A DNA stretch of 64,000 bases from Psammoneis japonica (Eukaryota), in NCBI GenBank assembly GCA_008632985.1, contig QPGO01000251.1, forward strand, positions 1 to 64,000, given 5' to 3'. Positions 5,366-56,587 of this stretch are shown here, in pieces. Numbering within the stretch: position 1 is the first letter of the stretch; each line of letters begins with the position of its first letter. The position numbers were made by a program, and so were the translations under genes. The notes below the pieces were generated by a model. It saw only the letters and a program-made list of their open reading frames with translations. It searched no databases and was not told the DNA's origin.

Positions 5366-6819
5366 TTATGAAGTTTCTTCATCTCGCTTGTCTGCGTCAA
5401 GACCCTGTGGAAAGTCCACAAATGGCATCGGCGAGTTAGCTAGTTCGCTCACTGGTGTGGGATCGACTGACTGGACAGGCGGGAGCATAGCGAGGTCTAT
5501 GAGCGAGGAGTCGCGGCTAAGCATGCCAAGAACTAGCGGTGCATCCATTTCTTCGGCAGTCATGTTGCTTTCAGAACCAATTTTCTCTGACGTTGAAGAC
5601 AACGCGGCACCAAGAGAGTTTCGGAAGTTGTTTGTGAGCTCGGAGAGACTGCTTTGTACGTCACCGCTGAGTTGGGGTGGATCAGGAAACGATAATTCTG
5701 TCTTCTTGAGAGCAGCTGTCGCGTTGCCGGTGGATGATATGTTAGTGTTAGTAGGAGTCTGTGGTGAATATCCGTGCCGTATGCCTTTCCCAATTGTCCC
5801 AGAGATTGACTGCGCTGGAGGATGCTTGAGATAGCCATTCAATTGGTGTTTCACACCTTTTCCAACGGCAATTCTAGCAACGTTAGAGGGGTTGGTACAA
5901 GACCTCTTGGAAGGGGGAGAAACGCTTTGCTGGAGGATCCCGGCTAACACAGGGTTAACAGCTGCGGCAGGCACACCATTTCTTCCACTGTTGCCAGCCG
6001 ACAAGGTATCGGCTTTAGAGTCACTTCGTTCGCGCTTCCGTCCATTCTTGTCTCTCGAGGTGGACACGCTGGTTTTTCTCTAGAGTAAAGTGGTGGGACA
6101 AGACGTGCATATTAGTTGTAAGCGACAGGTGTTCAGCGAGAGCGATGAATTCTGACACAACTGGACATACCTTTATCAACAACAAGCTTCGAAGATCTGA
6201 AGTCGTGGCGTCATTTACGTACGAGCACGGAGCCATTTTCCCCTTGCCAGCTAACTTCTTAAACCCGAAGTAGTTGAGCTGGCGTTGAAAGGATGCGAAT
6301 TTCGAATGCCTGAAGTACTTGTGTAAAACATCGCTAGCGAGCCGATAAGGGTCGTGAACCTCGATCTTCCCGTTAGTCCATTCGATCACCTCTCTATTGT
6401 CGTCGGTTAACATTTTCGTGAGCTGGTAGAGAAACTCAGCGACAGTATTGTTGTTTGCGACCGGAGTGGGAGCCGCGGCTGACTCACGGTCGAAGGAAGA
6501 GATGGCATTATCGGAACGGGGGCATTGTGCATAAGCATTGAAGCAGACGGAACAGTTGACACCGTCCTGCCAGTGGATTAGTAACAACAGGTCTAGGGTC
6601 AACTTCTGTCGCAATTAGAGGTGTCGGAGCCGGAGATACCGAGGCAGGTGCGGGCGAGGGCTCAAATGTACTCGTGAAAGGTAGAACTGAAAGTGGATCT
6701 GCTGTTGCTGGCAGCAAACTCAAACTATCCACATCTTCCAGTGACGACGAGGAAGACACTGTAGCTGGGCCCTTGCCCAGGCTGGTTCCACAGGAAGAAT
6801 CTATCCCCGAATTCGTCAT
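5366..6819 (-). CDS. Second heat shock transcription factor; intron 6080-6170; apparent frameshift(s) near 6480-6570
   Basis: [20 protein letters not shown]...[22 protein letters not shown]. Removing the GT..AG intron restores IKRKT as in the first HSF. Confidence 0.9.
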
Positions 6820-9399
6820 GTTTAATCGAATTCTGAATTTTCTGAGTCAACAAGTCCAATTCAAAGATACACTAAATTGATGGGTATGTGAGGGTGTAAC
6901 TGGAAAGTATCGTTTCGGCCACGATGGGCGATTTCAATGCTCTATCTTGGGGAGGAAGAGTGAAAAGGGGATGCGTTAGGGCTCAAACAGATAACGTTCA
7001 TACAGGTGTTGATTTCCGACCGGACTGAACACGTGATATGGTGACCTCTTCACTATCTTATGATTTGAGTTGCAAGACGAGTTACCAGCACATCATCGCA
7101 GCTACAAGCGGGAGAAATCAACAATGAGAAAGATCCTTACAAGATGACGACAACAGTTACCTTTCCAACTTTTTTCAAGAACTTCCTTCTAGCGACAAAA
7201 CTCCACCCCACTGCAGAAAAGCACTCCTCAGTAAGCTCTGTCTCGGTTAATAGCGATACATCTGTCCGTTGCGTTGCACCAAAACTGTTTCCCTCCGCTA
7301 TTTCCATTTCTGATGTGGAGACTTGCACAGGTGGCGCGATTTATGACGAAGGACACGTAACTATAATTTTTATCGGTATACAAAAGTTCTTATTCATGAA
7401 TAAAATACTCGTCAATTAATTTAGTGTATATTACGCGACACGTCAGCAAGAGTTTTTGAGTCACTCCCACATGGAAACGCCACCAACCCCCTCGGAGTCC
7501 TGTCGTAGATACGACTCGAGCTCTCGTTGGCGCGTGCACACAATGCAAACCGACACGCAAGAACTGACCCAACCTGAAACATTGTAGGTCCAGTCCTTCA
7601 CACATAAATGAATCCATTCTTCGTTCATGATGTGGCAGTTGCAGGTCAAGTGACCACATCATAGATTGCTGGAGACAACAATGTGGGCATGCATCGTGCT
7701 GCTGGTGAGGGTCTCTTCACAACAAGAACACGTGCCTGCATCAGCCACGCGCACTTCCTGGGGAGCAAGAAGAAGAATGTGGCAGCACAAATGGAACACA
7801 TGCACTCATTGTTCTTGTGTGGTGCTTTGTGTCTTCTGAAAGTGCCTGTTTGTCTTTAAAAGCTGCTGCTTGCTTCTCTCGACAAGGCAAGCTTGGTTTG
7901 TTCTTTTTTGTGTGAGCTTCGTCGTGGGCCCAGGGTTTTCGATCACAGAGAATTCCTTGTTCGACCCTGAATTTACTTGGATGAGGAAAGACAAGGGAAC
8001 CAGATGAGGAAAAACTAATTGTCATGATTTGCTGCATGGTTGCAACTGACATGATCATTTCATCTGGCGGTCAGCTCACATCCAGAGCAGCCTTTGGCTG
8101 CCAGCTCACTTCAGCACACCACATTCAACGTGCAAGGCAGACACCATTGGGCACCACATTCTTGAGGACAAAGAGACAACATGCTCCTGTTTCTCTCCAA
8201 TCTAGTCCACAAAAGCTCAAGTTAGGAGAAGCGTCATTCAGCAGATGCTCTCATCCATGAGGAGCTCCTTTTGAGCTTTCTCTGGCTGCCCGCATTGTCC
8301 ATTGTTGATGATGGCTGTCACAACCAGCTGTGTTCCGTGTGATGATGATGCTTGGCTGGCAGCTTGGGATCTTCTTGCTTTGGTGGTCATGCACCAAAAG
8401 CACGCACATCACCACTGCTGACATCATGTTCTGCACAGGACATTCTGCGTCAGATCTCAGCACAAAGATTTTTCCTTGTCTTCTTCCTTGTCTTGGACTG
8501 ACCACTTTGTTGCAATCAAAACCCCTGTGTGGGCCCTGTGCACACATTGGGACCTCTCTGTGGAGGTCTGCATGCACTTTGTGCCAGATTCTGTCTTGCA
8601 AACTGGGCTGTTTTTGGATTTTTGTTGTGGGGAAACTTTGCCAGTTTTGTGCATGTGGGCTGCATGCTTCAGAGCCACATGCAAAAATGTGCACGGAGCT
8701 CTGCAGAGGGGCCCCCATGCATGGAGCTGTCATGAGATGAGCAACAAAGGGCTCAGCTGAGTCAGCTGTTGTCTCAAAAATCGCAGTGCAAGTGCCAAGC
8801 CATCAAACAGAGGGCGTTGTGTGTGCAGGAGCCACAAACAACAACCAGCCAGACTCTTGGGTGGCACAGGTGCCAGGCTTTCACAGGAGACAACCATTGT
8901 TTGTCTCTTAACCCCACACACACCCAGCATTTTTTCTCTGCTCACATGCTCTCTGCTCTGTGGCAGAATTCTCCTGGGTTGTTGGCGGGGCTGTCCATTT
9001 TGTGATCCTCAGTCAGAGAGAAAAAGAGCATCTGAGGGGGGAACAATTTGTGCAGGGCCAAATCAAACAACATGTGGGTGTTGGTTGTTCATTTTCCCAG
9101 TTGGTTTTAGGTTCATTGTAATTTGGCTCCCATTGCATTTAATGGGGGCAGCCACACCGGCATGCTGCGTGAATGTGCAGGTCAATTGTTGCACCCCATT
9201 CTGTTCTGCAGCATGAACAATTCTGAGGCCATCACATTTTCCCTCTGTCCTCCATCAATGCATCCCTTTCTTGTTGATTTCTCCCATCTGTCCATGGCTG
9301 CTTCTGTTGTTGCTTTTTACAAATCACTGCCAAGTGTCAATTTAAACTGCTGCCTGTTGCTGCTGTGCATCTGGGAGCCACAAATCTGGCTCTTCAATG

Positions 9400-10250
9400 T
9401 TTTTGTTGTCCTTGTCCTTTCCCTTCCTCTGGCTGCCGTTGTCTTTTCAAGCTTCTTCTCTGCTGTTCATGCACTCCCAGAACTTTTTCAGCCCAACTTT
9501 GTTGCACTTGTCTGATGCCTTGCTCAACCTGTGCTTGTGAATCTGTTTCCCAATTCTTTGCACCTCTCCAATCCTTTCTTCTTCCAACCATGATTCCTTT
9601 TCACTTTGCCACCTGTCCCATTGCTCCATTTCACATTTGGATGAGCCCCTTGTCTCTGGCCTCCTTCAACTCTTCCTTCATTTTTCCATGCACATGTGCA
9701 CCCACTTGTTTCAATTGTTCTCTGCAACTGGCAGGTCAAATGCCTTGTTGCTTGCAGATGCCAACTTGTTCAAGCAACATCTTGATTTAAGCCAATGCTT
9801 CCACATTGTTTTTCCCACCACAATCAGCAGGAGGTGCACCATGGTGAAATGGCTTTGTGCCATTGTGTTGTTCCTCCCCTCCAGCATGTCCTCCAGAGAT
9901 GGCATCTTGGCATTTTCATCTGCTTGTGGGTTCCTCTTTGCATGATCCATGTGACCTGTGCACTTGCCAAACACCAAGCAACGCGTGTCAGCAATGTGTC
10001 AGTTTCCTGCATGCGGCACATTTTGTTTTGATGCAGCACTTGAGGAAGAGTTCTTTCTTCAGCTCCTCACTTGCATTGCTCCCATTTCTTGTCATTTGAT
10101 TTTGCACCTTGTCCTTTGATGTGCCCCAAATGTGTGCACTCTCTATTCTTGGGGTGTTGAGCTTGGACAGCACTCTCTTTGCAACCCTTCCATTGCTGTT
10201 GTACAGAAACTTGCACTGTCCAAACAATGCATTCTTGGAGCAGCTCTCCA
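9400..10250 (-). pseudogene. Fragmented coding relic of unknown, probably transposon-borne protein
   Basis: Protein-like fragments across frames (SEELKKELFLK, LASASNKAFDLPVAENNWNKW, GWKKKGLERCKEL, KVGLKKFWECMN) broken by frameshifts and TGA stops. Confidence 0.35.
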
Positions 10251-12139
10251 AAACAATCTTGTCCCTGTCACTTGTTTCATTGCTGCATCACTTTTTCTTT
10301 TGGTTCTTGCTCATGATTTTGTCTTGCTTTTCCATTGCAGATGTGGAGAGAGTCCCACCCATGACCACCAATGCGCCACTTTGGTGCATCACAGTTGTTG
10401 CTGGTGCATTGTTCTGGGTCTCAGCAACACGTCTCATCCCTGATCCATTCAGGACAAGCTGCAACTGCGGTGAGTCCAGAGTGCAATTGACTTGCATCTC
10501 ACTCAGTTGTCTTTCACCTCATTTCGCTCTGCAGGCTTTGAAATGGCACAGTCCCTGTCACTCAGCTCTGCATGGTGATGGATGCAAGTTGACTTGTTCA
10601 TGAAAAAGTGACTTTTGCACATGGTGGTGCAATGCAAATCAAGCGCCAGGCCACACGATGGTCCACTGACATGCCTGCCCCCCCACTCACACCTGCTCCA
10701 TGCATTTCTGCACACACACCTGATGTTCAAATTTCTGGCACAAGCTCTGATTGGTTCAAAGCCTCTGAAGATTTTGCAAGCTCAAATGAACATCTGTCAG
10801 TGTGATGCATGTCTCTCTCATGTGTGTGCACCGCATGCCACAAGCTTCGATGCCATCTGTCCTCCCCCCACACCCAGCAAGTGTCAGTGTCCACAGCTTT
10901 TCTGGTTCTTGACAAAAAGCATGTGCTGTGTCTGCAAAAGCAGCAACAACATTCAACAATGTGCTCCAGTGTCCACTTTCATGCCATGAAAACATTTGCC
11001 ATGCAACACAATCTCTGTTTTGTCCTTCTGCAACATTCTCTGACCTTGCCGGAGCTGTGGCCTTTTTTGCTTCAGAGCTTTCCTCACATTGCTTGTCCTT
11101 GTGGTCAAGAATTGTGTGCAGCCACTCAAATCAACATTTTGTTGGGTGGGTCATCATTGGGGTTGCCCTCTTGAATGTGAGTCATGATTTGAACTTGCAC
11201 TGGAGACATCAAAAGAAAATTCATCCAACCCTTCATGTCTTTTTTGTCTTGTTCCACTGAGACAGCATGCTTGGTTGGGTCCCCTTTTTTCTTTTCATCC
11301 AGCCAACTGTGGATGGTGTTTTTGTTTTGTTCCCAACCCGCAACTCATTTGGAGCCAACACCCTCTTGCAATGCAACCAAGATGAGGTGGCCCAGTGTTG
11401 TCTGGTTTCACAATGATTGGCCTGTCCATGCTCTGACACCATGACCTGGTGTAAGAACCTTTCTTGAGACAATCCTTTTCAGTCGCAGGCAACCATTTTG
11501 CACCCCATTTTTCAGTGCCAATGCACACTTTTTTAACAATCCTCTTTGCTCCATCTGTCTTCCAGCCCTGCAGAGCAGTGTTTGTGTTCAGCAAAGCATT
11601 GACAACCTCTTTTTCCTTTGCTGGAGACAACTTCTTGACCAACTTTTGAAGGTTTGGATCATCTTCACATGGAACCCCCTTTGTGTCTTCATTTGACTTT
11701 TCCATCAAACTGTCCTCATCTGGCATGTGCCCAACTGAACCAGTTGATGCTTTGGCCTTTGAATGGCTGTGGTCATCCACTGCTGCCCTGGTTGTTTCTT
11801 CTCCATTCTGAAAAGACACTTGAGCTGCACTGATGCACTTGGAACTTTGGCACAGCATGCACTCTGCCCACACAAACTGGCTCAAGTTGCTGACGTGGAT
11901 TGGAAGAAATGTGCAGTCTGCTCCTCCACACAAAATTGTTCTCCCACCTTGACGAGCCCCAGACATGCACCCAAATCTTCGTCAACTGCAATGCCATCAC
12001 AACAATGCCCTTCCAGAAGAGGTGGAGGAGCACATTTGCCCAAACCCTTGTTGCGTCAATCTGCCTGGAGTCATGTTCCCCAGCAAATTTGCTCCAAAGT
12101 GTCGCCCAAATTGCTGCAGTGCCGCAATTGACAAGTTGA

Positions 12140-13270
12140 GTGTTGCATCAGAAGCATCTTCTCCTGCTCCACCCACAAGGCATGTGGGGCAAGATGTTGC
12201 CTCTGATGAAGGCAACAAGGAAAATGATTTCCCCCAGATGTGACCTTCATGGAAGGGACCTCTTTTGTGGATGCAGACAAGGATGGCAACAATGGGACAC
12301 TTGGTTCTGAGTTCATTGACAATGACAACAAGAGTGGCGCAGCATCCCGTCACTTGCAACACAGTTCTTTGCTGCTGCAGCCAGGGCTTTGTTGCTCAAG
12401 AAGAGTCACATCCAACAAAAGAGGCAAAGATGAACCATGTGGCATTTTCAATGCAGGTGAAGAACAGAGGCCCAGCAGCATGTCATCCATGTCCTCTGGA
12501 GAGGACTCCGACAGTCACTCAGAAAGCACTTCAACGGCCATTGAGCTCCTTCCTGTCCCCTCTGACAGTGAAAGCAGCGACAACAATGATGAGGAAGATT
12601 AGAGTCTGCCTGCATGTTCTGATGATGCAGTGCATGACTCGATGTTTTTGCCGCCCAACAGCTCAGAAGAGGTGGGTTGGTCCTCCCCACCTCAAATGGA
12701 CAACATGGCGGGTCATTGCATGACACACTGCAAGCAACCTGGGTTGACTGCAACAACAACAAAGACTGTTCACAAACAACTGGGCACAACTGATGGAAAT
12801 GTTGTTGCGCTTTCATGTGCAGTCAAAGAGGAAAGATGGCTTCTGGAGCACCAACAACAAGACAGAAAGGGAGAGACAAGGGAGGCTTCCAAGTCAATTT
12901 CCATTGTGATCAAAAGCATTCTTGGAATGGCCCCACTGACCAAAGTCACCCAAAAGATGGGAAAATTGAAGATGCGTGGAAACAGATGGGATCTTAAAAA
13001 ACTGAATGCCTTGTGCATTTGCCTGGAAGCATGTCCTGGCATGGATCCCGAATGGATGCCCAGCTGATCAGATGGAGAGCAATCACAAGCACTTTGCAAA
13101 GGACCCCGGGTTCCAAGCCCAAAAACAACATTCGTTGTTTGCAATGCAGACAGCAAACAACCTGCAAGGAAAGATGCTGCCACAACTGCAAGGTTGGCTT
13201 TTGGCCTCTGCTTGAACCAAGTTCCAGCTTGTTTTCCTGGAGCCTGTTTACACAGCACTGGTCAAATGTT
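12140..13270 (+). pseudogene. Relic ORF with acidic N-terminus and C-terminal Cys-rich zinc-finger-like segment (possibly piggyBac-like)
   Basis: SDSESSDNNDEED acidic tract, then RCLQC...K..CCHNCKVGF...ACF. No catalytic core is recognisable, and some Cys may be edited Tyr/Arg. Confidence 0.25.
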
Positions 13271-16200
13271 GCATTGGTGCATCTGGGGAGGCAGAGACTT
13301 GAGCTCATGTCACTCAGGAGTGGTTCTTCAAAACACAGGGACTCTGGAACTTCCACCCACAGTGACAAAACATTTGTGCCACACCATCAGAAGGTGTTGT
13401 CCCACAGCAAAGGATGCCATTGAAGCCACAGAGGTGAACATTGAAGGCATTGGCAAAGCAAGGGCCCACACCCCAGGCATCATTCTGGAAAACCTGTTTG
13501 CAATTGGGTCAAGTTTGCTCAAACATGTCAAGAGAGAGTCACATTTTGGGCATGGTGTGTTTCTTGATCAACACAGGAGGTGACAAACTGAATGATCCTC
13601 TGGCCTTGGTTTGCCAATGCAGCCATCATTTTACAGAGAGATGCCAATCACTTCAAGTCAACCATTTTGGAATGACATGCCAAGGCACAACACTGGTCAG
13701 GGATCCCATGTTGATCCATGCACAGTCTCCTTGATGAAAAAGAGGTGCTTGTGTTTAAAGACAACCCTGCCCTCAAGGAAGAGGAGCCAAGATGGGCTGT
13801 CAAAACTCAAAAAAACAAGTTGGCACCCAGGCTGCAAATTGTTGGAGCAAAATCTGCCAGCATTGCATGAAGGCATGCATTGAGCCAAGAATGTGCACTC
13901 TCAGAAGCCACAAGACAAAACTGCTGTTGAGAGACAAGCAATGTTGCAAGACTGGGTGCATGAAGTGCATGATCACACGGATTGGATGGAACTGTTCTCA
14001 CAGATGCCCATGTGCCAGCAGAGCAGATCCCAGCTCAGACTGAGTGGTTTTTAAAAAATGGAGTGGCAGTCTAAATGATGAGAACAGAGAACAAGTTCAT
14101 TTTCTGCCTGACAAAAGCAACACTGCAGCCACCTGTTCAGCCTGCCAATGGCCAGCATCAATCATTGACAAACCATTGTGCCATTCCTTTTGAGATTGTC
14201 AAGTTTTTTGCAGAACTCATTGTCAAATTTTCCAGTGTGGCCAGCTCCCTGTCTTCCATTGGAATGTGCCTTTTTCAAATCAGCAATCAAGATGCATTCT
14301 CCACCAAACAGCACAGTCTCTGATGAGTGCCACCTTTCACCCTGACAACTTGTCCAGTGTCACTTTCATTGGTGGAAATGACTTCAAAGAAGGCTTCTTT
14401 AGAGACAAAAAGGTTTTGATCAACATGAGCTGTGTCAACAAAGTGATGATCCAAGCTGCAGATTTGGTTTTTGTCACCACGGCCGCTGACAATTTCTCCT
14501 GATTGGTTTGTGAAGGGGCAGCACAAATGTTTTTCATTGCACTCTCTCTGCTGTTTCATTGTCTGTCTTCAATGGATCACATGGAAGCATGGGAAGCATC
14601 CAAGATTTCATCATCTTTGTGTTCTAGATGCATGAAGCAGAAAGGCAAGTGTCCAGTTGTCACCATGAACCCCGCCAGATGGTCAGCACCCAAGTCTTTG
14701 AAGTTTGGGACAGTGAGTGCCACTTCTGAAATGACAGTGCAACACTCTCCCACCCCAGCTCTGTGAGAGCATCCTGCTGTGTCGTCAGATTCTTGGCTGC
14801 ATGGAATGACATCGCACGTGTGGGAACACTCATTGTGCCATTCCTTGCAGGTTGGGAGGACAAACAAGTGGTCCCAGGCATGACGCTCCAGGGGCAGGTT
14901 CCTGTTCTCACACAGAAGCTCAGAGTTGATTTTCACAATGGCCAAGTGCACCAAGCAACTGAGGCAAAAATCCTGAGGTGGCAGGGGTTCAAATTGTGGT
15001 GCTGCTGCAACACTGTGCTGTGCACGCAGCAACAAAATGGCATGGCTGGGAAAATGCACTAACTCCCAAAGCATGGAACAGCAAGATGGTTGAAAGGAAA
15101 AAGAGGGAGTGCATTTGCATCAACTCATCCAAGGCACTGATGTTGATGTCAGAAGATGCCCAAATTTGTCAAGGTTGCACTTCATCTTCAATGCTTTGAA
15201 CAGAGTGATGCAGTTGTGAACCATTGCACTGCTTCTCACATGATCCAAACCAATGGATTTGCAAGAATCTGGCAAAGAGTTGCAAACTGACGAGACAGTG
15301 TTCACACAAGGTGAGTGAATGCTTTCACCAACACCTGTTCATCATGTTCATTTTGCATGTGTTCCACAACTGCTGTCCATTGAGGCACTCCCACATCACT
15401 GACAGTCTCTCAAGAAAGAGCGACAACATTTTTCTTGGTTTTCTTGAGGCCATTGTGTTTGTTAAAGTGACAGTCAAGGGGATTGGAAAGGTTGGTGCTG
15501 GCCACATGCATCAACAGAATGCATCAGCCAGGAGCCATTTTGTTGGTTGCCTTTCTCAGTGTGGATGTTGGTTGGGTTGTTGTGACAAAACAATGCTTCT
15601 CCTGGAGAAAACCAAGGGACATCTTCCACTCCTTGCTTGGTGCAGTTAGATGAGTGCAGAAAGCACCACGAGATTGCACACTGGGCAGACATGGCCAATG
15701 GACACAACACACCAGAAGTGCTGCCATGGTCCTTGCACATGCCCAGCAACTGTTGCCAGCAGAGGAGGAAGAATCACAGATGTCAAAATTTGCTGGCTTT
15801 CTCAGATGCAGCCTTAAAATCCAATTGGCCAAGGATGGGTTGGCCTTCATTGACAACATGAGGGCTGGCTTTGTGGTGATTTTTATTTGGACAATGCACA
15901 TCAAACAAGATGCTGTTTTTACAACAAAAGTGTCAACAACAGCCTTGCAAATGTGTCTGAATGCACCATCATGCAATGAAAATGCTTCCGTCAACACAAA
16001 TGGATGCCCGACCCCAGTCAAGATCAGGCAGCACAAAATGAATGTAAGCAATCTGCATCCAGCACTTGTGGCTGGCCCAACCAAGTGTGCAAAGTGAGGA
16101 GATGCTCTTCCGGTGTGACTCTTTGGGGTCTTTGTGCACCATCCCAACATTCTTGAGTCCTCTCATCCATTGGGTGGTGCCAACTGGGGGGTGGTTGATG

Positions 16201-16644
16201 ATGCCACAGGAACCACACCAATGGGAGATTGGGTGGCACAGCTGGGATGTTTGGGGCCTTGCACAACTGGGCCATTCATGACAGGATCCATTGCAGGCAA
16301 ACCAATTGATGAGTCACGGTGGAGCAAGAGAAGGAGGGAGTGGGTGCTTGAGGAAGCACTGCCTGGACAGTGACGGATTTGCTGGGGGCAGGGTGCAGAC
16401 ACCAACACTCCTTCAAAGGCTGTGGCAGTGGGAGGCAAGAAACGTGCAGTCGAGATTGCAGGGAAAAGATGAGGTGAGTGCAGTGGATCCATCACCAAAA
16501 AGAAGGGGAGATGTGGGATGAACCACAACAAAGCAAGCAAAGTGGTCCATGGAGAAAATGTGCCGCAGATGTCAAAACCATCTCCAAAACCATGGCAATG
16601 ATGCATCACGGCAGTTGTCCACACAAACAATGGGAAATCCAACA

Positions 16645-16955
16645 ACAACAGCTGTGCCCCCAGCAAGGGTGGGAGTCATGGGATGAACGCTGGCAGCACA
16701 CTCTCTGCTGGCTTGCAAGCCCAAAAAGTGGCATCTGGCGGCTGTTCCCCCAAAGCAAGGAGTGAGAGGGTGGGGCACACCGCAACACAATCATTGAAGG
16801 GCATGTCCACTGACATCACTGTGCCCCCTGTGGAAAAGGGGGGCATGGGATGAACCCTGGCAGCAATGTCAGAAAACCCTCAAAAAGCAAAGAAAACCCA
16901 GCTGTGCCCTTTGCAAACATGGGGGGCATGGGATGAACCCTGGCAGCACACTGGT
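16645..16955 (+). repeat. Three dispersed copies of a ~50-bp motif CTGTGCCC..GGGGCATGGGATGAACCCTGGCAGCA
   Basis: Copies start near 16649, 16817 and 16899. A partial GGGATGAACC occurs at ~16515. Confidence 0.75.
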
Positions 16956-18562
16956 GGACGTCTCCAGTGCCAACCCCATGAGGCAGCACTGCAAAACCTC
17001 CACAACAAGATGAAGTGGTTTTCCACATGGAGGCTTTGCAGCCACGTCCTTTGCTGCTTTCTGCCACTGCTTCTTTGATGGATGAGAGCGGCGGCATCCC
17101 CTGAACTCCTTTGAATGGCCGGCAGGGGACAAACAGTGAACCATGGCACAGCTGGTGTGTGGAGATATGTTGCTGTGGTCACAAAATGAAGCTGCAATCA
17201 AGCCAAAAAGCAAAAAGTTGCAAAAAAATGTTGTCATGCAGATCCAACTGAACAAAATGAAAATTTGAGAACAACCAAACTTCCACGCTGAGCAGGACAT
17301 TGACACGATTGGACGAGATGCAGGTTGAAATTTTTGTCATGGTTGGAAAACAGCACTGCCATTTAAAAACAAAGAGGAGGCAATTTGCCAAAAAAAACAG
17401 CATCAACCAAAAAGAGCTTGTGTTTTGTGCAGTGCATCCGTGTGGAGAACACGTGGGGAGGATGTCTGCTGGGAGAATTTAGAACAATGTGTCTGTTTCC
17501 TGCAGAGCTGGACAAATTGAAAATCAAGGAAGTGTCAATTGGAAATCAACAGGCTGCAGGATTGATGCAGACACCATGGGAGTCAGGCAGGGTTGTGTGA
17601 GAAAAATGTGTGTGTGTGTGTCGCATCAAATGAGGGTCGCCCCCTGTTCAATGCGAGACCTGCATCAACCCCAACTCTGATTGGAGAGAAAGAAGGGCTT
17701 GTGGGACATGTCATTTGCACAACATCCTGACACACACAAAAGCTGGGTGAGTGGCTGTGGGGCTCTTCTTTCTTCAACAACTGCCCCCATGCTCTGTGCA
17801 CTGCACAGTGCAAAGCAAAAGCTCTGGGAGCAAAGTGCCCGGCATTTTGTCCCAGGTGTTTTTGTTGGTGCTGCACAGGGCATTGTGGAATTCAACAAGA
17901 TGCCTGGCCTCCTCTGTTGGAACAAAAAGTGTGACAAAAAATCTTCTGTGACTGGGCCACGCTTTTTTGAGCAGCTGGTGCACTTTTTTTTGTCAGAGAG
18001 AGGTCTCTCTTGTGGAGTGTGGGGTGCTGATTGGTGGCTCAGTGATGATGGGGGGTCTCAATGGGGCAGAAGTTGATGAGGCACAGTGCGTCAAAGATGG
18101 CCCTGTGAATGAAGGACTGCAGTTTGTGTGAGACCTCGGCGGGCAAGCTCTCCATCTTTGTTAGTTCATCAGTGGCTGGGGAAACCACCGGCAGCCCACC
18201 GCACCTGGAAAAAGAGGTTTACGTCGCTGCATGCAGAATTTGTCAATCGAACTGTTCGTCTCGTGCGTGTGTGCCTCAGCGTCATTGCGTCGAGCAACCC
18301 TGTCCACAACGCACAGACATACAGCGGCAAGCGGCAACGTATCATCCGTCGATCGATCGCACCCTGCCCAAGCTTTCTTTCATTTTTTCGCATTCTTCTA
18401 TGTTCACCTCTCGGACATCACGGAAACTGTAGCTTCGCATCATTTCACCGAGGGACACGAGCGCTTTGGGTCATGCGCATAATCTTTAACTTTACTCATA
18501 TTCGCTGTTTCCTTTTCGCACTTCACGTTCTTGAATTCTTTTGTGAAGGCTTCACGTTAAGA

Positions 18563-21500
18563 ATGGGTGAGTGTGAGATAGTTGGTACTTGCGTTGGATG
18601 ATGTCGTCGTATTCCGATGGGAATGGCGAAAAACCTTACCAGCAGTGTCCTTGTTCTTTCAGGTCTTCTGAAAGTCGGTGTACCTCAAACATGGGACAAG
18701 TCGAAAAACAATCTGAACTATGTTAGAAAGGCAGGTGTTCGTCAGTTTGTCTCTACGTACAACAGGGTGAAAGATCTAAAGGGAGACGAGCTACTGTGGG
18801 GAGATGAGATCGAGTACGGGATATTTTGCCTCGACGAGCAGAATAAGAAGATTAGGCTCAGTCTTCGCGCGAAGGAGGTAAGCGTCATTTCTCTTGGCCG
18901 CATCTGTTCACAACGAACGTGTAGTGGCTGAGCTTTCATGTCCTGGACTACGATGATAAACAATGAACAGGTGATGGACGAGCTCAATCGCAAGGAAAGT
19001 CTGAACGCGGAGGCTGTCGAGGGTTGCAATTGGGTCCCAGAGTACGGATCATGGATGGTTGAAGCAACACCAAGTCGTCCATACACAGGGTACACAACGG
19101 ATCTTTTACGTGTGGAGAGAAACATGCGCTTGAGGCGAAAACGAATGCTGACAGTCCTGAGGGAAGATGAGATTGCGCCAACTGTTGCTGCTTTTCCTAT
19201 GTTAGGTGCAATGGGTAATGATGGAACGGTCCCAGCTAGTACGATTGGTGGGCCTCGGACAGAAAGCGAGTACATCGGCGATGCTGTCATTAACCCTCAT
19301 CCTCGTTTCGGAACTCTGACGGCTAACATCAGACAGCGTCGCGGAGAAAAAGTCAACATTCGAGTCCCCCTCTTTCGCGATACAAATACACCTGAATACG
19401 AAGAGTATGAATCGCCCGCTGGCGAAGGCGATGGTTGTTGTGGTGGCGATTCTCAACAGGTAAGGCAGTCGCCACAGAGCAAATATCTGTGACATTGGTG
19501 ACTTTTGCACACTGAGGTTCATTGACACCTTTTTCCTCGTGACAGCTCTGGCGCTATGGTAAAGGAGATGGATCTCGCGAAAAGTATGGAAATGACGAAG
19601 TCGTTGTTGGCTGTTCCAAGTCTTCCAAAGACGAGGAATTTCAGGACCAAGGCGGAGATCCAATAACTCTTCAAAAGTGGCTCGTGGATGTTCGATGCGA
19701 AGGTTGCCGCGGACTGTTCTACCGTAGCTCGCCGGGAGTTATCGTCCCAGATGCGGACTGGCCAAGAAACGGGGGTAAGAATGTTTGAACTTGTTGATTT
19801 GCCTGCATTTTAAATATACTGGCGTGACGTCGTACTGTTGACTCACTCAAGCGCCCACCTTGTTTCGAAGAAATCGTAATTGGACACGAGATATCTGACG
19901 TTCCAGGTATGTCACACTAAATGCAAGTTGGCTCATATTCTGGCATTTCATTCGTTTTATATAATCCGGAATTTTTGTTTATCGTAGGTTGGATTAGACT
20001 GCAGAACGGTTATTATCTGCCCATGTGTAGTGATGATGGGTCAGATGTAAAGTTCTTGCACAAAGTATCGACGAGGTCTGAATCTTCGAAGTCCGAGAAA
20101 ATGACTGTTGGTTCCGGCACACCTCTCTTCCGTGGTGGTGCGGTAGCTGCTGACTCACTCGCTGATGGCGCCGCTTTCGCTGACCTCGTGGAAGGAAAGC
20201 TCGCACTTGCGTCTCCTCCGGTCCGAAGTGCCAGCACGTCCACGGCGCAATCTACCGAGGAAGAGGCGGAAGAAAACGTCCGAGCTGCAATCCATATGGA
20301 TGCAATGGCATTTGGGATGGGCTGCTGCTGTCTTCAGATAACCTTCCAGGCAAAAGACATTGACGAAAGCCGTTTCATTTACGATCAGCTCGCGGTCCTT
20401 GCTCCCATAATGATGGCTTTGACAGCCTCAACACCAGTGCTTCGTGGTCGCCTTGCCGACACAGACTGTCGATGGGGCATCATTAGTGAGAGTGTAGACG
20501 ACAGAACTCTCGCAGAACGTGGTCGACCAGATCCATCCGCTCCACAAGAAGAGCTTGCGGGGAAAGGCCAACGGAGGCTGTACAAGAGCCGTTATGATTG
20601 CATTAGCACTTATATTTACCAAGGGGCGTTCTACCCCGACGACGAGAAGGCTGTGAACGGTGTAGACTCGACGCGGATGGCAAATCGTGTCTTGAACCTC
20701 TACAATGATATCCCAGTCCCGATTGATGAAGAGAGCTACCAACTTCTTCGAGATTCTGGTGTCGATCCGGCACTGTCCAGCATATTGCTCACTTATTCGT
20801 CCGAGACCCTCTTGTTATTTTTGAAGGCGCAGTAGAAGAAGTAGATGATGATACACAGACGGAACATTTCGAAAGTATCCAGAGTACGAATTGGTGAGTC
20901 CAATGTTACGTTGTATCTTTGGTAGTGGCATATCTTGAGCGCAGGTGTGTTCCTCACAAACAGTGTTCTTCCGCTTTGTAGGCAAACGGTGCGCTGGAAG
21001 CCACCTCCTCCTAGAAACGATCCGAATGACCCACACATTGGGTGGCGCACGGAATTTCGAAGCATGGAGATGCAGCTAACGGACTTTGAAAACGCCGCGT
21101 TCACTGTTTTTATCGTCCTACTCACCCGGGTCATTTTAACGTTCGATCTGAATCTGTACATTCCGTTGAGCCGTGTCGATGCAAACATGCAGCGAGCACA
21201 TAGCAGAAATGCCGCGGCGAAAGGAAAGTTCTTTTTCCGTCGGCACATGGCGCCCCTTGAAGAAGGAGACGACGGCTTTGGAAATGAGTACAAGTCTATG
21301 TTTACGATGGCCGCCAACAACGAGAGCAGCACACGGAGCCAGTCAGATAGCGACCCGATTGACGACGAAGTTTTCGAGAATGGGGTGAGTCGAAAAAGGC
21401 GAGTCGCTCCATGCGCTCCTGGTAGCGACGAGGAAAACTCATACGAAGAGATGACAATCGCAGAGATTATGACGGGAAAAGGTGACTATTTCCCAGGACT

Positions 21501-22005
21501 CATTCCGTTGGTGCTGGCGTACGTTGACTTTATCAATTGTGACTCGATCACTCTTGAGCGTATCACCAAGTACCTGGAGTTCATCGAAAAGAGAGCTACA
21601 GGGGAACTGGTGACGCCTGCGACGTGGATTCGTAATTTCGTTCGGAGCCACGAGGCCTACAAGGGCGACTCGGTAGTGTCGGACGAGATTGCGTAAGTTT
21701 CTTCGAAACTATTTTGTTTGAGTTTATGACTCGACACCCAACTAACTGAGCTTTGTGTTTGATCCTTAATCACTGTTTATTGCAGTTATGACCTCATGGT
21801 TGCATGCAAGGATATTGGTGAAGGCAAACTTCACATCCCCGAATTGTTGGGTGACGTGAAAATCAAGCCAATCACAACAGAAGGAGCATATGGCATCAAG
21901 CTCGACTCCAAGACTGTTCGCAATGAGAAGTTGCTGGAATTGCTCCAGCGCTACTCACACCGCAAGTCTTTTTCAAAGTCGAATGCACCGAATGTATCTA
22001 TTTAG
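18563..22005 (+). CDS. GCLC: Glutamate-cysteine ligase catalytic subunit (gamma-glutamylcysteine synthetase), multi-exon
   Basis: A 4-nt first exon ATGG plus intron 18567-18662 gives MGLLKVG. Motifs [77 protein letters not shown]. One 1-bp frameshift at ~20778. Confidence 0.95.
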
Positions 22006-34981: not shown

Positions 34982-36124
34982 TGCATCGCAGTGATTTTGG
35001 CAACAGATAAGATGTCGGCGTGACGCGTGACGATGGCTTCTTCTTTCGTTGTGATCCGATTTGTGGACATGGTCGTGTGGACCAAGGTGCGCGGATTGGT
35101 GATGCGATTCAATGTGCGAGAGTTGCACGATGGAAGGACGAACGCATCGCATCAGGTTGCTTGTTAGCTTGTTAGCTTGGCTCTGCCATGCCGTAGATGA
35201 GTTAGGACAGGGCCCGCTCCACAGCCACCACTCTAGAACAGATGCCTCCAAATCCAAAGCTAGCTTAGAACCGGTGCTTCCCAGTGTGTTTGTCTGTCCT
35301 GGTGTGAAGACTTCCTCCTCTCTCCAAGCTGGAAGTGGAAACACACAGAGCTGAAGATGGGACGAAATTTCAACCAAAAGAAGGCAGCGCCCTGACTGTG
35401 GGGTGGGAGCTGGGTGCTTCGAGCAAGAAATTGCTTGGAAATGTTGATGCTGAATGTTGTTTTTTCCTTCTTGGCACCTCAACTTGCTGGTGCAGAGTGC
35501 ACCAAAAAGGAGCCACTTGATTGTGGCTCTCAAATTGTGGCTCCAACAAGCTGCCAGAAAGTGAGAGCAGCAAACACCTCAAGATCGAAGAAAGACAGCC
35601 CTTCTTTTTGTTGACCCTGCCAGCAGCAGAGAGACTCTGACATTTTCTGGAAGCAAGACAACAACCCTTGGTGGCATCACAACAAGAACATGCTGCTGAT
35701 TCAACACTCTGGAAACACCCCAGATGAAGCTCTGAATGAGCAAACTCACTTGGCACACCCAAGCACAGAGCTTTGAAAATGTCCGCTGTGCCAAGGACAG
35801 AGTTGCAGCACACAATTGAGTTTGCATTTTTCTCTCATTGTGCTTCTTTGCCAACCAGAGTGGATTTGTTGCAAATCAAATTTTTGCAACAATGTGTGGG
35901 AGCAACTGCGCTTCACACATGGACACGATCAACGCAAGCAAGCAATGTCTCTGGCCGCAATGACACCCACACAATTTTTCTGGAGAATGGACAAAAGCAA
36001 TTCTGGCAAACTTGACTTCTTTCTTTGTGCCTTTGCCATTTTCCTTGTTGTTGTTTTCTTGTTTTTCTTGACAAGCTGTGACACAAGCCATGGGGCCTTG
36101 TGTGCTCTGGCTTCATTTGCCCAG

Positions 36125-36690
36125 CACTTGATGCTGTTGACAACACCCTGAATTGCAGCCAGTTGTTTGATGTTTGACTCACCTCAGCTCATTGATGTTT
36201 GCTCAATGCTTGATGCTGCAAATGATGTCCTGATGACTTGCTGTTGTTTGCTTGAAGCTTGACACTGATGACAACACCCGAACTCATCTCTGCTTGCCCA
36301 ATGCCTGGCACTGTTGACAACACCCCAACTCCTTGCTGTTTGCCCGGTGCTTGTGCAGCACTGGCACAGCACCTCAACATTGATGACACCCCCACTCATT
36401 GCTGTTTGCCTGATGCTCAATGCCGTTGACGATGCCCTGGCTCATGACCACCATTTGCCAGACACTCGATGCTGTTGACAATGCCCCAGCTTCTTGTTGC
36501 TGTTTGCCTCTGACACTTGGTGCTGTTGAAGATGCCCCAACTCCTTGCCATTTGCTTGGTGCTTCTTGACAGTGCTGACAATGCCCCAGCTCATTGCTGT
36601 TTGTGCCTGGTGCTTGGTGCCATTGACAATGCCTGACATTGATGACACTGGGGCCAGTTGCCATTTGCCTGATGCTTGGTGCCACTGGTG
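36125..36690 (+). repeat. Degenerate ~48-bp minisatellite, about 11 units
   Basis: Approximate consensus TGCTGTTGACAATGCCCCAGCTCATTGCTGTTTGCCTGATGCTTGA. Units differ largely by TG/CA/CG alternation. Confidence 0.8.
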
Positions 36691-38249
36691 CCAGACAAAA
36701 CATGCTCAGATCTTGCGCACCCAGGCTGTTCAATGATGCATCCAAACCTCACAAACCTTGCCACTCAATGACATTTCTGTTGCTCTTGGTTGCAAATGAC
36801 AGCACTGGAGAGGGTGCTTCATTCATTGGGCAAAATGACCCAAGTCTTTGACAAGAACTGCTGGTTCTTGTTGCTTTTTTCAAGGCTTTCAGCAGAGGCA
36901 GTGATGCAAAAAGCACAAGGGGGTGCCCTCAGGAGGACAAACTTTTCTCAGATCCATGCTGTTGGTTGACAAGGTCTTGTCCAGCAAAAATTTTCCTTTG
37001 GGTTGTTGCCCCCACACTGTGAGCCCACCAGAGAGCTTGCTCAAAACAACAAGCAACAGATGTGGCAGATCTGCACTGCCATCAATGAAAGACCCAGCCC
37101 AACCAAACCCACCCAAAAAACATGCCCATCATTCTCACCCATCAGCCTTGCCCCTGCCTGGTCATGCATGTTGTTGGCATCTGGTCTGAGCTTGCAACAA
37201 GACAAAATGACACTCTGAACATTTGCTTTGTGAGCATCACTCTCATTGTCATGAAACCACTGCAATTGACAGAGCAAGAGACTGTCAATGCAAATGATGT
37301 GAGAGCCTCTCCCTCATGTCATTTGCATGCTCAAAGGGCAGTTTCAGCATTCTGACAAAACAGCAAAGCAAACAGTCTCTGTCTCCAGGGGAATCATCAA
37401 AGTGGCACATCTGAATGTCAGCATCACCAGGAAGCCACACACTGAGGCATAAAATGCTGAACAAATCCTCAGACATGGCCAGAGCTCATGTTGAGATTTT
37501 CTTCTGTCTGCAAAGGCAGCAACATCAATTTCTTTTTGTTCAGCCACATTTGGAGCTGCCAAGTGGTCAAGGATCCTGCACCCAAATCTTCAAGAATGTG
37601 AGCCCACTCAGGAGGCCAGCTTGGAGTTTTGCAAAATCTTCATGGAGCAGCTTCATGCACCCCATCATGTTGAAGCAACATCTTCTCTCATTCATGACAC
37701 ACCTTCTTGTCTGCAAGGCCCCACCACTCTGACTTGAGGTGCTCTTTTCAGCATCAATCTTGACATGCACTTTTCCTCAACATCATGAAGGGGCAGCCAC
37801 ACTCAGCAGCACAGATGGCACAAGAAACCCAGGGACTTTGACAGAAAGAATGAGGTGGACAAAGACCACATGATGAACATTTGTGTCATGTTGGCAGCAA
37901 CAAACAGTGCAACACAAGAGGGCTCTCACCAGTGCTCACCAAGATGTTGCCACCCTTGAGAGGGAGATGTGACATGAGCTCCTTTTGTCCACCAATGACA
38001 CACCTTCCATGCCGCATCTGGTGGTGCCTGCACAGCCTGTTTGCAGCTGCAATGAAATCATCCCCTTGTGCTCCGTGCAGTTTTTGAATGTGTGCCTTGC
38101 AACACCCACAAAACTCACTGCTGCCATTGCAGCCACACCTCAAAATGGGAGCTTTTTCTCATGCTGATGATGCTGCTCTTGTGGCCAAAGCTTCTGCAAA
38201 AGCCAGCCATTGGAAGATGAAGCTTCTGATTGGCCCCTTCACAGTCTGG

Positions 38250-39050
38250 AAGACTGCTGCAGTTGTGCTTTTGGACCAGCTTCCAATGTGCTCATCAGAC
38301 AAAGTGGAAAACCCCATGACCTTGTGCTGGAGCTTTGCTGTGTGCTCTCTCTCTTTCCCATTTCTCTTGTTTGGTGCCCAAATGTCTGGTTTGGTTGCTG
38401 GCAAATCTGGGCACAAAAGTGCTTCTTGAGGTCTGGCAGAGACATGCTCTAGTTTCCTTTTGGCGTGGGGGGCTGTGCTTGGAGCACTTCATTTTGTGCT
38501 TGGCTGACAGCAAGTGGTGCAAAAGAAGATGGGAGCATCAAAAATGCCACAGCCAGTTGCCCCCTGCATGCTGCCAGGGCTGTCTTTTCTGACTGTGTTC
38601 CACATCTTGTCAGTTGGGCTCCTTGTGATCTTCCATGTCTTGCCAGCTTGGCTCCCTTGTCCTCTTTCTCTTCTTTTTTTTGCCTTTCTGCTCAACAAGC
38701 TCTGGAGTGCTGCTGTGGCTGTGCTTTTGGACCAGCTCCTGTTGCTCATCAGACAAAGCAGCAAATTCTGTGTTGTTCTTGTGTTGGAACCTTGTCCACC
38801 TTTTCCCATTTTTCTTGTCCATCTCAGTCCACTGTTCTGGCACAAACATGTCTGGACACAAGTGCTCTTCTTGAGGTCCATCAGAGACATTCTCCAACTT
38901 TCTTTCAGCAACCCATGCAAGGGCTCTGGTGCTTGAGGCACTTCCTTAAGGTGACTGGCCAACAGCAAGTGTGGTGCCCCAAAGATGGGAGTGTCAACCC
39001 ATGTGGGATGTTGGGTCTGGCATGCCAGGGTTCTCTTTTCCAGCAGCTGC
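38250..39050 (+). repeat. Diverged tandem duplication with ~455-bp period (38255-38600 vs 38708-39050)
   Basis: Colinear shared anchors: TGTGCTTTTGGACCAGCT, GCTCATCAGACAAAG, CTTCTTGAGGTC, ACAGCAAGTG, AAGATGGGAG, TGCCAGGG. Confidence 0.75.
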
Positions 39051-41470: not shown

Positions 41471-41559
41471 ACCGGCAAACCAGGCATGCTCGAAACTTGC
41501 CCCCACTCAAACCGCATTCTCAGAAGCAAAAGAGAAACATGTGGACATGTGACAGTGCT

Positions 41560-56583: not shown

Positions 56584-56587
56584 TTAT

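Follow-up and report, generated by a model that had tools for sequence, protein, structure and literature searches.

A TpA-erased, CpG-decayed domain in a diatom-like genome points to two directional mutation processes acting on non-coding DNA

The 64-kb window (the whole stretch of DNA analysed here) carries five blocks in which TpA is nearly erased and CpG has decayed to a variable extent, the largest being a domain of 10,556 nt, hereafter domain A. From its composition, from pairs of mutated and unmutated copies nearby, and from differences to a second public run, we consider it probable (roughly 0.8) that two directional mutation processes operating at the DNA level drove silent non-coding DNA to a compositional end state. 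The blocks are as follows (o/e, observed/expected).

7606..18161, no strand: domain A, TpA-erased and CpG-decayed, 10,556 nt; 36 TA (o/e 0.051), 99 CG (0.162), CA+TG o/e 1.80
35262..41700, no strand: block B; 13 TA (o/e 0.03), 37 CG (0.10)
43330..44860, no strand: block C; 5 TA (o/e 0.047), 20 CG (0.235)
55380..56079, no strand: block D1; 2 TA (o/e 0.046), 24 CG (0.55)
56614..59158, no strand: block D2; 4 TA (o/e 0.024), 76 CG (0.49)

Composition of domain A and of the other TpA-poor blocks

Compositionally, positions 7620-18150 (10,531 nt) hold 36 TpA (o/e 0.05) and 99 CpG (o/e 0.16), together with 1178 CpA (o/e 1.82) and 1186 TpG (o/e 1.78). At the rates of the 41,950 nt of normal DNA in the same 64-kb window, which served as baseline (40.4 TpA and 58.9 CpG per kb), about 426 TpA and 620 CpG would be expected, giving Poisson log10 P values of -132 and -149, respectively. 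The preliminary description of this DNA had estimated by eye about three dozen TpA where several hundred were expected, and had noted CpG loss; its estimate proved exact, and both its expectation and the CpG loss are borne out by these counts. The depletion concerns TpA and CpG alone, since neither ApT (57.0 per kb in domain A versus 62.8 in normal DNA) nor AA/TT (80.2/85.5 versus 72.7/85.0 per kb) is depleted. Relative to normal DNA, TA fell by 37.0 and CG by 49.5 per kb and CA rose by 44.5 and TG by 40.0, so that the 86.5 TA+CG lost per kb are nearly matched by the 84.5 CA+TG gained. GC content is the same inside and out (0.482 in domain A, 0.476 in normal DNA), and domain A is therefore invisible in GC plots, as had been anticipated.

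Together the five blocks make up 21,771 nt, or 34% of the window, in line with the earlier figure of about a third. TpA o/e lies at 0.02-0.05 in five of five blocks, compared with 0.42-0.77 in normal 1-kb windows, which agrees with the view that the process runs close to saturation, while CpG o/e varies from 0.10 to 0.55. TpA loss and CpG decay are confined to identical blocks; in block D2, however, TA is wholly erased but for the few survivors listed above while half of the CpG persist. TpA loss precedes CpG decay, is the faster of the two and is separable from it.

Borders and flanking genes

The borders of domain A, their surroundings and the genes on either side are listed below.

7606..7661, no strand: left border of domain A; 11 TA in 205 nt (7401-7605), then 1 in 250 nt
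7620..7999, no strand: left edge zone, TA erased and CpG partly retained; 18 CG in 7500-7999, the centre having 1-5 per 500 nt
18090..18161, no strand: right border of domain A; CpG dense again from 18137, TA from 18162
5369..6941, minus strand: left flanking gene, HSF-type DNA-binding protein; intron 6080-6170 (CT..AC on the plus strand); TA and CpG normal
18383..21693, plus strand: right flanking gene, glutamate-cysteine ligase; four GT..AG introns in a spliced contig that starts at 18383; TA and CpG normal

At the left border, TA is dense until 7605, with 7662 and 7857 as the next positions; at the right border, no TA of the domain lies beyond 17480, and normal TA density is back at 18162, about 220 nt upstream of position 18383, the end of the right-hand gene's spliced contig. 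The borders are about 60-70 nt wide, and the right edge resembles the left, with 9 CG in 17000-17499. Both borders are spanned by single contigs (7452-8173 and 17090-20000) of X1, the contigs of one other public run, whose library type is not on record and which may share its sample with the assembly. The left flanking gene points away from domain A, because its intron reads CT..AC on the plus strand, and the right one is also oriented away, so that the domain sits between two divergently transcribed genes. That these genes have normal TpA and CpG had been noticed before and is true of both.

Content of the blocks

Six-frame scans of all blocks against Pfam families gave no real match, no period-3 coding signal was detected and the longest open reading frame is at chance level, and searches for LTR or TIR pairs found none; the Pfam scans and coding-signal tests revealed no transposon or viral protein remnant in any block. 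Two features inside domain A do reflect repetition.

7868..8801, no strand: segment with many extra contigs 90-95% alike; summed contig depth ~320 versus ~56 in the flanks (not copy number)
16649..16952, no strand: three degenerate copies of a 54-nt unit

The first of these is a repeated family, and weaker contig pile-ups occur at 9269-10669 and 12538-13471. Domain A is non-coding and in part repeated; the look-alike contigs that pile up on some of its segments, the sole basis for a foreign or repeat origin, give a hint of one. The preliminary description had proposed a process working regionally, in the manner of a chromatin domain, across nested, unrelated elements: regional action is supported by the sharp edges and by the coverage of both look-alike-contig segments and flank-depth segments, whereas the chromatin domain is putative and the nested elements are unproven, there being no Pfam match, period-3 signal, or LTR or TIR pair behind them.

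Direction, targeting and context of the changes

Two pairs of related sequences within the window, each with one mutated and one unmutated member, bear on the direction of change.

56067..56588, plus strand: copy A of a 0.5-kb element, unmutated, between two mutated blocks; 30 TA, 42 CG
56811..57333, plus strand: copy B of the 0.5-kb element, mutated; 2 TA, 40 CG
35285..35650, plus strand: decayed, mutated gene-fragment copy in block B; 0 TA, 4 CG; 72% identity, with indels, to its parent
46309-46664: corresponding part of the parent gene, unmutated, 11 kb from the copy; 11 TA, 14 CG

Copies A and B are 91% identical and lie 744 bp apart, and 28 of their 46 differences are TA in copy A read as CA (15) or TG (13) in copy B. 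Thus 28 of the 30 TA of copy A are changed, with no transversion at those sites, and CpG is near intact (40 versus 42). Outside TpA, six further differences are T-to-C or A-to-G, and a few such secondary A-to-G changes fall in AAT or GAT contexts. Between the fragment copy and its parent gene, TA to TG/CA accounts for 13 of 70 substitutions and CG to TG/CA for 12. Judged by sequence comparison, these pairs establish the direction as TA to TG/CA and CG to TG/CA. Because copy B is mutated with copy A spared, and the fragment copy with the parent gene spared, the changes would be directed by place and not by homology, which supports targeting by location or silent state rather than by sequence homology. 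A 1.3-kb inverted-repeat element at 50771-52102 is also unmutated, and since both it and copy A escaped, either some repeats are spared or the process is episodic.

This targeting sets the blocks apart from repeat-induced point mutation (RIP), a process of ascomycetes such as Neurospora that needs duplicated sequence, mutates both copies and turns CpA into TpA, making the DNA AT-rich. The likeness lies in the dinucleotide-specific, transitions-only and near-saturated mutational disabling of unwanted DNA in sharp-edged blocks. The direction, however, is opposite, with TpA destroyed (o/e 0.05), CpA/TpG raised to 1.8 and GC unchanged, and the duplication trigger does not fit a copy A with 30 TA spared beside a copy B with 2, or a spared parent gene.

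Both strands are struck evenly and in fine interleaving. In domain A, CA and TG are balanced (1178 versus 1186), TG-versus-CA overdispersion is 0.62 against 0.98 +/- 0.21 in 200 shuffles, with no strand patches, and TG/CA runs number 1215 against 1194 +/- 24; between copies A and B, the CA-versus-TG outcomes form 12 runs against 14.9 +/- 2.6.

With respect to sequence context, TTAA accounts for 20 of the 53 TA surviving in the low blocks compared with 72 of 1693 TA in normal DNA, and the base 3' of the A is A at 60% of survivors compared with 23%, the baseline here being gene-rich normal DNA that may differ from the ancestral sequence of domain A. Within domain A, 30 of the 36 surviving TA contain TTA or TAA. 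Where ancestors are known, the fraction changed by 3' base was 10/30 for A, 4/9 for G, 8/14 for C and 13/21 for T, and A differed from C+T in this small set of 40 TA sites (Fisher's test, p = 0.046). These sequences indicate a context bias in which 5'-TA followed by T or C is preferred, TAA is spared and TTAA survives.

Persistence and recent change in a second run

X1 contigs cover all of 7620-18150 at flank-like depth (~56x) with the same TA-poor sequence; the TpA-poor state, which was to be looked for in another assembly, is kept in this separate contig set, possibly from the same sample. The window and X1 differ at 66 positions, 40 of which are listed, 32 of these 40 being in domain A. Among those 32, 10 set CpG against TpG/CpA and 9 touch TpA sites. 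At least 4 of the 36 TA of domain A differ among the differences listed. Two further sites have CA in the window where X1 has TG, each pair being separate outcomes of one ancestral TA. Among the listed differences, leftover TA are affected at 4 of 72 bases and all other positions at 28 of 10,459, a proxy rather than a real-time rate, and the excess stays at least 10-fold even with all 26 remaining differences assigned to other bases. Since the listed differences between the window and X1 concentrate on leftover TA and CpG, the process looks recent, and seems to have been active after the split of the two sampled haplotypes or strains.

Mechanism and comparison with known systems

Mechanistically, the fast process would convert TpA into TpG or CpA by an A:T-to-G:C transition on either strand with equal chance, and would be TpA-specific and targeted by location. 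A slower one would act on top of it, turning CpG into TpG/CpA as expected of 5-methylcytosine deamination in methylated silent DNA. The two would share TG/CA as their sink, keeping GC content constant. The chemistry of the fast process is most likely enzymatic adenine deamination, as proposed for the chlorarachniophyte Bigelowiella natans, in which a TadA/ADAT-like or other deaminase-fold protein would convert adenine to hypoxanthine in DNA. The targeting signal is likely silent chromatin or cytosine methylation. In diatoms, transposons are described as major targets of CG methylation (PMC9998398), and the CpG-to-TpG/CpA half of the pattern, in the same blocks (CpG o/e 0.10-0.55), is like the decay of methylated transposons; that decay, in contrast, cannot account for TpA loss, which proceeds faster and has run to completion even in DNA that keeps nearly all its CpG.

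The published case, in B. natans, concerns TpA hypermutation of giant-virus and virophage DNA integrated in the genome. Of 231 mutations that mutation-accumulation lines gained in two such viral regions, 230 were A-to-G or T-to-C, all 230 at TpA, and elsewhere in the genome clustered 1-kb windows were TpA-poor and CpA+TpG-rich, some with transposon domains (Mettrop et al., bioRxiv 10.64898/2026.01.13.699255). As there, the changes seen here are near-exclusively A:T-to-G:C transitions (28 of 30 TA in copy B; CA+TG gain equal to TA+CG loss in domain A), are restricted to TpA, yield TpG or CpA by strand (13 TG and 15 CA), affect particular regions with neighbouring DNA at baseline, and run against the usual GC-to-AT bias. 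The differences are that the host is a diatom-like stramenopile and not a rhizarian, that the target consists of gene-fragment copies and of non-coding DNA, some of it repeated, in which no viral genes were found, and that TpA o/e is 0.02-0.05 compared with the 0.45 given for the viral region. CpG decay is superimposed here, whereas the words 'CpG' and 'diatom' are absent from the preprint's main text; the context bias reported above likewise has no counterpart in that text, which is silent on trinucleotides and flanking bases. In B. natans, de novo events could be followed in real time, whereas ours are inferred from polymorphism. Enzymatic deamination against selfish nucleic acids, as proposed here, is also the business of APOBEC3 (C-to-U on cDNA) and ADAR (A-to-I on dsRNA), but these are described as acting on single-stranded cDNA or RNA in strand-biased clusters, unlike the even change on both strands of resident chromosomal DNA.

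Alternative explanations

Sequence does not separate adenine- from thymine-directed chemistry, TpA being palindromic: T-to-C on one strand is A-to-G on the other, and all counts fit equally a TET/JBP-type oxygenase that makes 5-hydroxymethyl- or 5-formyluracil at TpA in silent DNA, mispairing with G to give T-to-C. 5-formyluracil causes such transitions, and T at TpA is modified in some protists; the context would become 5'-[A/G]TA favoured and 5'-TTA spared. We nevertheless regard this as unlikely, as our analysis offers no support for a TET/JBP-type enzyme or oxidised T in diatoms, and the sole experimental precedent, as its authors present it, reads the pattern as adenine deamination, itself unproven.

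Considerably less probable is error-prone patch repair, in which the T:G mismatch from 5-methylcytosine deamination would recruit polymerase-eta-like synthesis that wrongly places G across from T within WA motifs, the mode of phase 2 in antibody somatic hypermutation. It would account for TpA loss and CpG decay in exactly the same blocks and for the few secondary changes in AAT or GAT. Polymerase eta prefers WA and its spectra include many transversions, so both TA and AA should be struck; AA/TT are instead undepleted in domain A while 28 of 30 TA are gone from copy B without a single transversion, and TpA is fully erased where 40 of 42 CpG remain.

Hyper-editing of retroelement transcripts by an ADAR-like A-to-I enzyme, with retro-copying and insertion of the edited copies, would share the 5' U/T preference that the preprint's discussion describes as common to ADARs (bioRxiv 10.64898/2026.01.13.699255). 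The changes, however, lie finely interleaved on both strands, with neither the one-strand clustering per copy that ADARs would leave (12 runs against 14.9 +/- 2.6) nor TG/CA overdispersion. A mutated gene fragment and a mutated small-element copy stand beside unmutated relatives, entire blocks with sharp borders are affected, and six-frame Pfam scans of the blocks found no reverse-transcriptase remnant. ADARs moreover prefer G 3' of the edited A, unlike the order T/C > G > A seen here, and we hold this route to be very improbable. Just as little weight goes to a sequencing or assembly artefact, such as G or C being called in error at modified bases of silent DNA: the unrecorded library type and possibly shared sample of X1 leave it some room, but the separate X1 contigs carry the same TA-poor sequence at ~56x and bridge both borders, the older pair (35285..35650 and its parent) also shows indels and other substitutions, and the same signature was, according to the preprint, called from Illumina data in B. 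natans. Foreign or special DNA intrinsically avoiding TA and CG, or selection, with no mutator at all, is scarcely credible: domain A has no alignable unmutated ancestor within the window, but in the copy pairs TA and CG are the starting state, losses and gains almost cancel out, selection would have no coding signal to act on, and the listed differences between window and X1 fall most often on leftover TA and CpG.

Significance

By analogy, the footprint matches the TpA hypermutation of B. natans, of which there is one prior description, the 2026 preprint. The same footprint, at saturation, in a diatom-like genome would place TpA hypermutation in a second major lineage, and in an ecologically dominant and genetically tractable group. 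It would also add testable traits: the process is faster than and separable from CpG decay, strikes both strands evenly, spares TAA, comes to a halt over <100 nt, upstream of active genes by a few hundred bases, spares some young repeats, and may still be making differences between haplotypes or strains. Being GC-neutral and without recognisable protein remnants, such domains would be missed by standard GC plots and homology-based repeat annotation, with consequences for the reading of repeat content and of 'dark' intergenic DNA in genomes of this kind. More tentatively, and with the odds somewhat against it, we posit an old, still active genome defence common to diatoms and chlorarachniophytes, in which a location-guided enzyme would act on double-stranded chromosomal DNA, turning the A of 5'-TA(T/C/G) into G. 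It would work separately from cytosine-methylation decay, at a much higher speed, and would erase silent DNA in a GC-neutral manner. If true, the enzyme of this shared defence would be a natural A-to-G DNA editor.

Composition and borders of the TpA-poor domain

A dinucleotide count over positions 7620-18150 (10,531 nt; domain A) found 36 TpA, matching the roughly three dozen estimated by eye in the preliminary description (observed/expected, o/e, 0.05), and 99 CpG (o/e 0.16), together with 1178 CpA (o/e 1.82) and 1186 TpG (o/e 1.78). The rest of the window, 41,950 nt lying in no low-TpA block (hereafter baseline), has 40.4 TpA and 58.9 CpG per kb, rates at which ~426 TpA and ~620 CpG would be expected in domain A (Poisson log10 P of −132 and −149, respectively). 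The TpA-poor domain is thus real. Per kb, it lacks 37.0 TA and 49.5 CG relative to baseline and carries an extra 44.5 CA and 40.0 TG, with ApT, AA, and TT the same as in baseline DNA. The GC content is 0.482 versus 0.476 at baseline, the GC-neutrality that had been anticipated from two opposing losses.

Domain A has sharp borders in its TA positions. On the left, TA is dense through 7605 and then occurs only at 7662 and 7857, while on the right the final domain TA lies at 17480 and the usual density returns from 18162, giving an extent of 7606-18161. More CpG survives toward the two ends (18 in 7500-7999, 9 in 17000-17499) than in the centre (1-5 per 500 nt). Four further low-TpA blocks share this state:

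35262-41700, block B
43330-44860, block C
55380-56079, block D1
56614-59158, block D2

TpA o/e is 0.02-0.05 in all five blocks, and CpG o/e varies between 0.10 and 0.55 across them. Together they total 21,771 nt, or 34% of the window, in agreement with the one third first proposed.

Content of the low-TpA blocks

To look for protein remnants, every low block was translated in six frames, reading through stops (as X), and searched against Pfam; this returned no family at E ≤ 1 in domain A, none in blocks C and D, and none in block B, where a single sub-threshold match (CSN7a_helixI, E = 0.052) is at chance level. Period-3 power exceeded 4 in 0 of 133 low-block windows, compared with 14.8% of 263 normal windows. 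At 228 aa, the low blocks' longest ORF is as long as a Markov-1 model predicts (227 ± 50), and a long ORF at chance level is expected because TAA and TAG are gone, leaving TGA as the sole stop. Domain A held no tRNA, no Rfam family, no internal LTR or TIR pair, and no tandem array beyond one trivial 23-nt tandem repeat. In block B, 36129-36613 contains seven degenerate copies of a 47-nt unit (62-79% identity to the reference) at irregular spacing.

Contigs from another public run, X1, were aligned to the window; of the 147 that matched, 67 were just 90-95% alike. The latter stack on 7868-8801, where summed depth (which is not copy number) reaches ~320, compared with ~56 in flanking DNA. Weaker stacks occur at 9269-10669 and 12538-13471, and depth over other segments, e.g., 11137-12537 and 17208-18141, matches that of the flanks. 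Parts of domain A are repeated elsewhere, and this uneven stacking shows it to be non-coding DNA in which repeated segments are mixed with others that seem unique. Neither Pfam families nor LTR/TIR pairs were found to support the nested, unrelated elements proposed in the preliminary description.

Direction, order, and strandedness of the changes

Two pairs of related sequences lie within the window:

56076-56583 as aligned (56067-56613 by wider bounds), copy A of a 0.5-kb element, between two TA-erased blocks; 30 TA, 42 CG
56820-57328 as aligned, copy B of the same element; 2 TA, 40 CG
35285-35650, decayed gene-fragment copy at the left edge of block B; 0 TA, 4 CG
46309-46664, parent of the fragment copy, part of a gene; 11 TA, 14 CG

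Copies A and B, 744 nt apart and 91% identical, differ at 46 positions, including 15 TA-to-CA and 13 TA-to-TG changes with no transversion at those sites, and the 70 substitutions between fragment copy and parent include 13 from TA and 12 from CG to TG/CA. TA and CG are thus the ancestral states, and TG/CA the sink. The loss of TpA is far faster than that of CpG and separable from it; in copy B, TpA erasure is complete and CpG intact. The sole match of the parent ORF (46118-46831), PsbP-like, is below threshold (E = 0.0076), and a long minus-strand ORF running through the fragment copy is probably spurious.

CA and TG counts are nearly equal in domain A, and the two outcomes are finely interleaved: they alternate as by chance in copy B (12 runs versus 14.9 ± 2.6 expected) and are evenly mixed in domain A (overdispersion 0.62 versus 0.98 ± 0.21, and 1215 runs versus 1194 ± 24, in 200 dinucleotide-preserving shuffles). 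By these runs and overdispersion tests, neither copy B nor domain A contains strand patches, i.e., long TG-only or CA-only runs. The interleaving rules out a single pass along one strand, the mode expected if an RNA or cDNA intermediate had been edited, and the strand symmetry likewise contradicts ADAR/APOBEC-type RNA or cDNA editing. The pattern fits repeated hits, on either strand, to resident double-stranded DNA.

Sequence context

Among the 53 TA surviving in the low blocks, 20 are TTAA (versus 72/1693 in normal DNA), 12 are CTAA/TTAG, and none is ATAC; counting both strands, the A is followed 3' by another A in 60% of cases versus 23% in normal DNA. For domain A alone, TTAA accounts for 12 of 36 survivors, and TTA or TAA is present in 30 of 36 (versus 704/1693 in normal DNA). 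Where the ancestor of a TA site is known (40 sites), the hit strand by 3' base was A in 10/30, G in 4/9, C in 8/14, and T in 13/21 (Fisher, A versus C+T, p = 0.046). Trinucleotide gains per kb (TGA 8.4 versus CAA 25.5; TGC 31.8 versus CAC 20.9) agree with such a preference. The mutator likely prefers 5'-T-A-(T/C > G > A), graded as likely rather than certain because the survivor baseline is gene-rich and the ancestor-based test small. The few A-to-G changes off TpA in copy B are mostly at AAT or GAT. Between X1 and the window, two adjacent A-to-G changes occur at 8910-8911 (TAA to TGG) and again at 13870-13871 (GAAG to GGGG), hinting that an A beside a hit site is convertible too.

Evidence of recent activity

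X1 contains 78% of sampled words of the stretch, and its contigs span 6000-20000 at ~56×, with both domain borders bridged by single contigs (7452-8173 and 17090-20000). These contigs argue against an assembler artefact, though X1 is not fully independent, since it is possibly the sample behind the assembly and its library type is unrecorded.

X1 differs from the window at 66 positions, and 32 of the 40 listed lie in the domain. Of these listed domain differences, 10 set CpG against TpG/CpA (CG in X1 at 8, in the window at 2), 9 touch TpA sites, and the remaining 13 are of other kinds. Among those listed, a window TA is TG or CA in X1 three times and TT once, and a window CA is TA in X1 once; at 10950/1 and 14800/1, the window has CA and X1 has TG, which is the expected trace of independent opposite-strand hits on one ancestral TA. 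Differing bases among those listed make up 4/72 in leftover TA versus 28/10,459 elsewhere, an excess of at least 10-fold even with all 26 unlisted differences assigned to other bases. Therefore, the process was active after the split of the two haplotypes or strains.

Genes around the domain

The genes around domain A are eukaryotic, encoding HSF-type DNA-binding proteins, glutamate-cysteine ligase, a nucleotide-sugar transporter, pseudouridine synthase, and alpha-kinase. Named relatives of the transporter are nearly all diatoms (Epithemia, Bacillariaceae, Seminavis, Nitzschia, Cylindrotheca, and Thalassiosira; 59-76% identity), and the best-scoring record is a 727-aa sea-anemone protein at 48% identity. 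Both bordering genes are oriented outward:

left neighbour, minus strand, HSF gene with an intron at 6080-6170 (CT..AC on the plus strand)
right neighbour, plus strand, glutamate-cysteine ligase gene, covered by a spliced contig with four GT..AG introns

The latter contig, from a spliced-looking public run (X2), terminates at 18383, ~220 nt from the domain border, and the low blocks end upstream of transcribed genes, at a distance of a few hundred bases. No RNA data set is listed as containing the stretch, and X2 contigs are absent on 7401-18141, both of which are uninformative on silence.

In the normal left flank, two of the eight differences listed there (6926 and 7027) have TG in the window and TA in X1, and may reflect slight leakage of the mutator past the border, or chance. 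Elsewhere in normal DNA, three long minus-strand ORFs are Pfam-negative at E ≤ 0.001 (47324-50728, 1135 aa; 1-1794, 598 aa; 27565-29055, 497 aa), and a near-perfect palindrome at 59442-59609 (67-nt arms, 90% complementary, 34-nt loop) lies ~300 nt right of block D2.

Targeting

Homology is not the trigger, judging from copy A, intact beside mutated copy B, and from the parent gene, intact while its fragment copy is mutated. The unrelated flanks of copies A and B rule out a 744-nt tandem unit and mark the copies as two insertions of different age; lying amid mutated blocks with flanks unlike those of copy B, copy A looks like the younger insertion, still unhit. Fungal RIP is duplication-dependent; here that dependence was tested and not found, and the direction of change in domain A is the opposite. 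At 50771-52102, 48-nt terminal inverted repeats (98% complementary) surround 1236 nt of TA-rich, normal-state DNA; this unmutated 1.3-kb element is a candidate non-autonomous DNA transposon spared by the TpA mutator.

The closest known case to domain A comes from Bigelowiella natans, in which giant-virus and virophage DNA integrated into the genome is hypermutated (bioRxiv 10.64898/2026.01.13.699255). As that preprint describes, 230 of 231 mutations in two regions of mutation-accumulation lines were A-to-G or T-to-C, all 230 on TpA, at ~1000 times the background rate and in some lines only; elsewhere, the genome has TpA-poor, CpA+TpG-rich clusters and coding sequences with transposon domains. 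As a putative agent, its authors suggest an ADAT2-like adenine deaminase acting on DNA. The preprint's main text does not use the words diatom, CpG, trinucleotide, context, or flanking, and flanking-base data may be given in its Table S2 and Figure 2B. The position of the block ends, close upstream of transcribed genes, fits targeting that depends on location or silent state and that may be episodic, as it is in B. natans.

Alternative readings and the CpG component

Sequence alone does not separate thymine-directed oxidation from adenine deamination, since the reverse complement of TpA is again TpA. N6-methyladenine, which in surveyed eukaryotes is located at ApT in active genes and not in transposons (PMC12695648), was set aside as a trigger on that account. 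Polymerase-eta-type WA mutagenesis was rejected, with AA/TT untouched and transversions absent, and GC-biased gene conversion was set aside on the basis of untouched ApT, AA, and TT.

For the CpG half, 5mC deamination is the natural reading, given that transposons in other diatoms are the main targets of CG methylation (PMC9998398) and bear H3K9me2/3 and H3K27me3 (PMC4504042). Our full-text literature search found no description of TpA-directed mutation in diatoms; a "TpA" match in PMC4504042 was the word "Tpase". A survey of other diatoms through 80 metagenome loci near homologues of the flanking sugar transporter (324 kb, 520 one-kb windows) found no TpA o/e below 0.25 (lowest 0.30) and is uninformative because these are mostly short gene or transcript contigs.

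Taken together, the reading that best accounts for domain A is A:T-to-G:C hypermutation that is specific to TpA, targeted by location, and directed at silent non-coding DNA, overlaid by a slower decay of CpG; its enzyme and targeting signal are inferred. Such a process has been described once (2026, in B. natans), and domain A puts it in a diatom-like genome. To that description the window adds the mass balance, the order in which the two processes act, the interleaving of strands, the anatomy of borders between divergent genes, the absence of coding remnants, and polymorphism evidence of recent activity.
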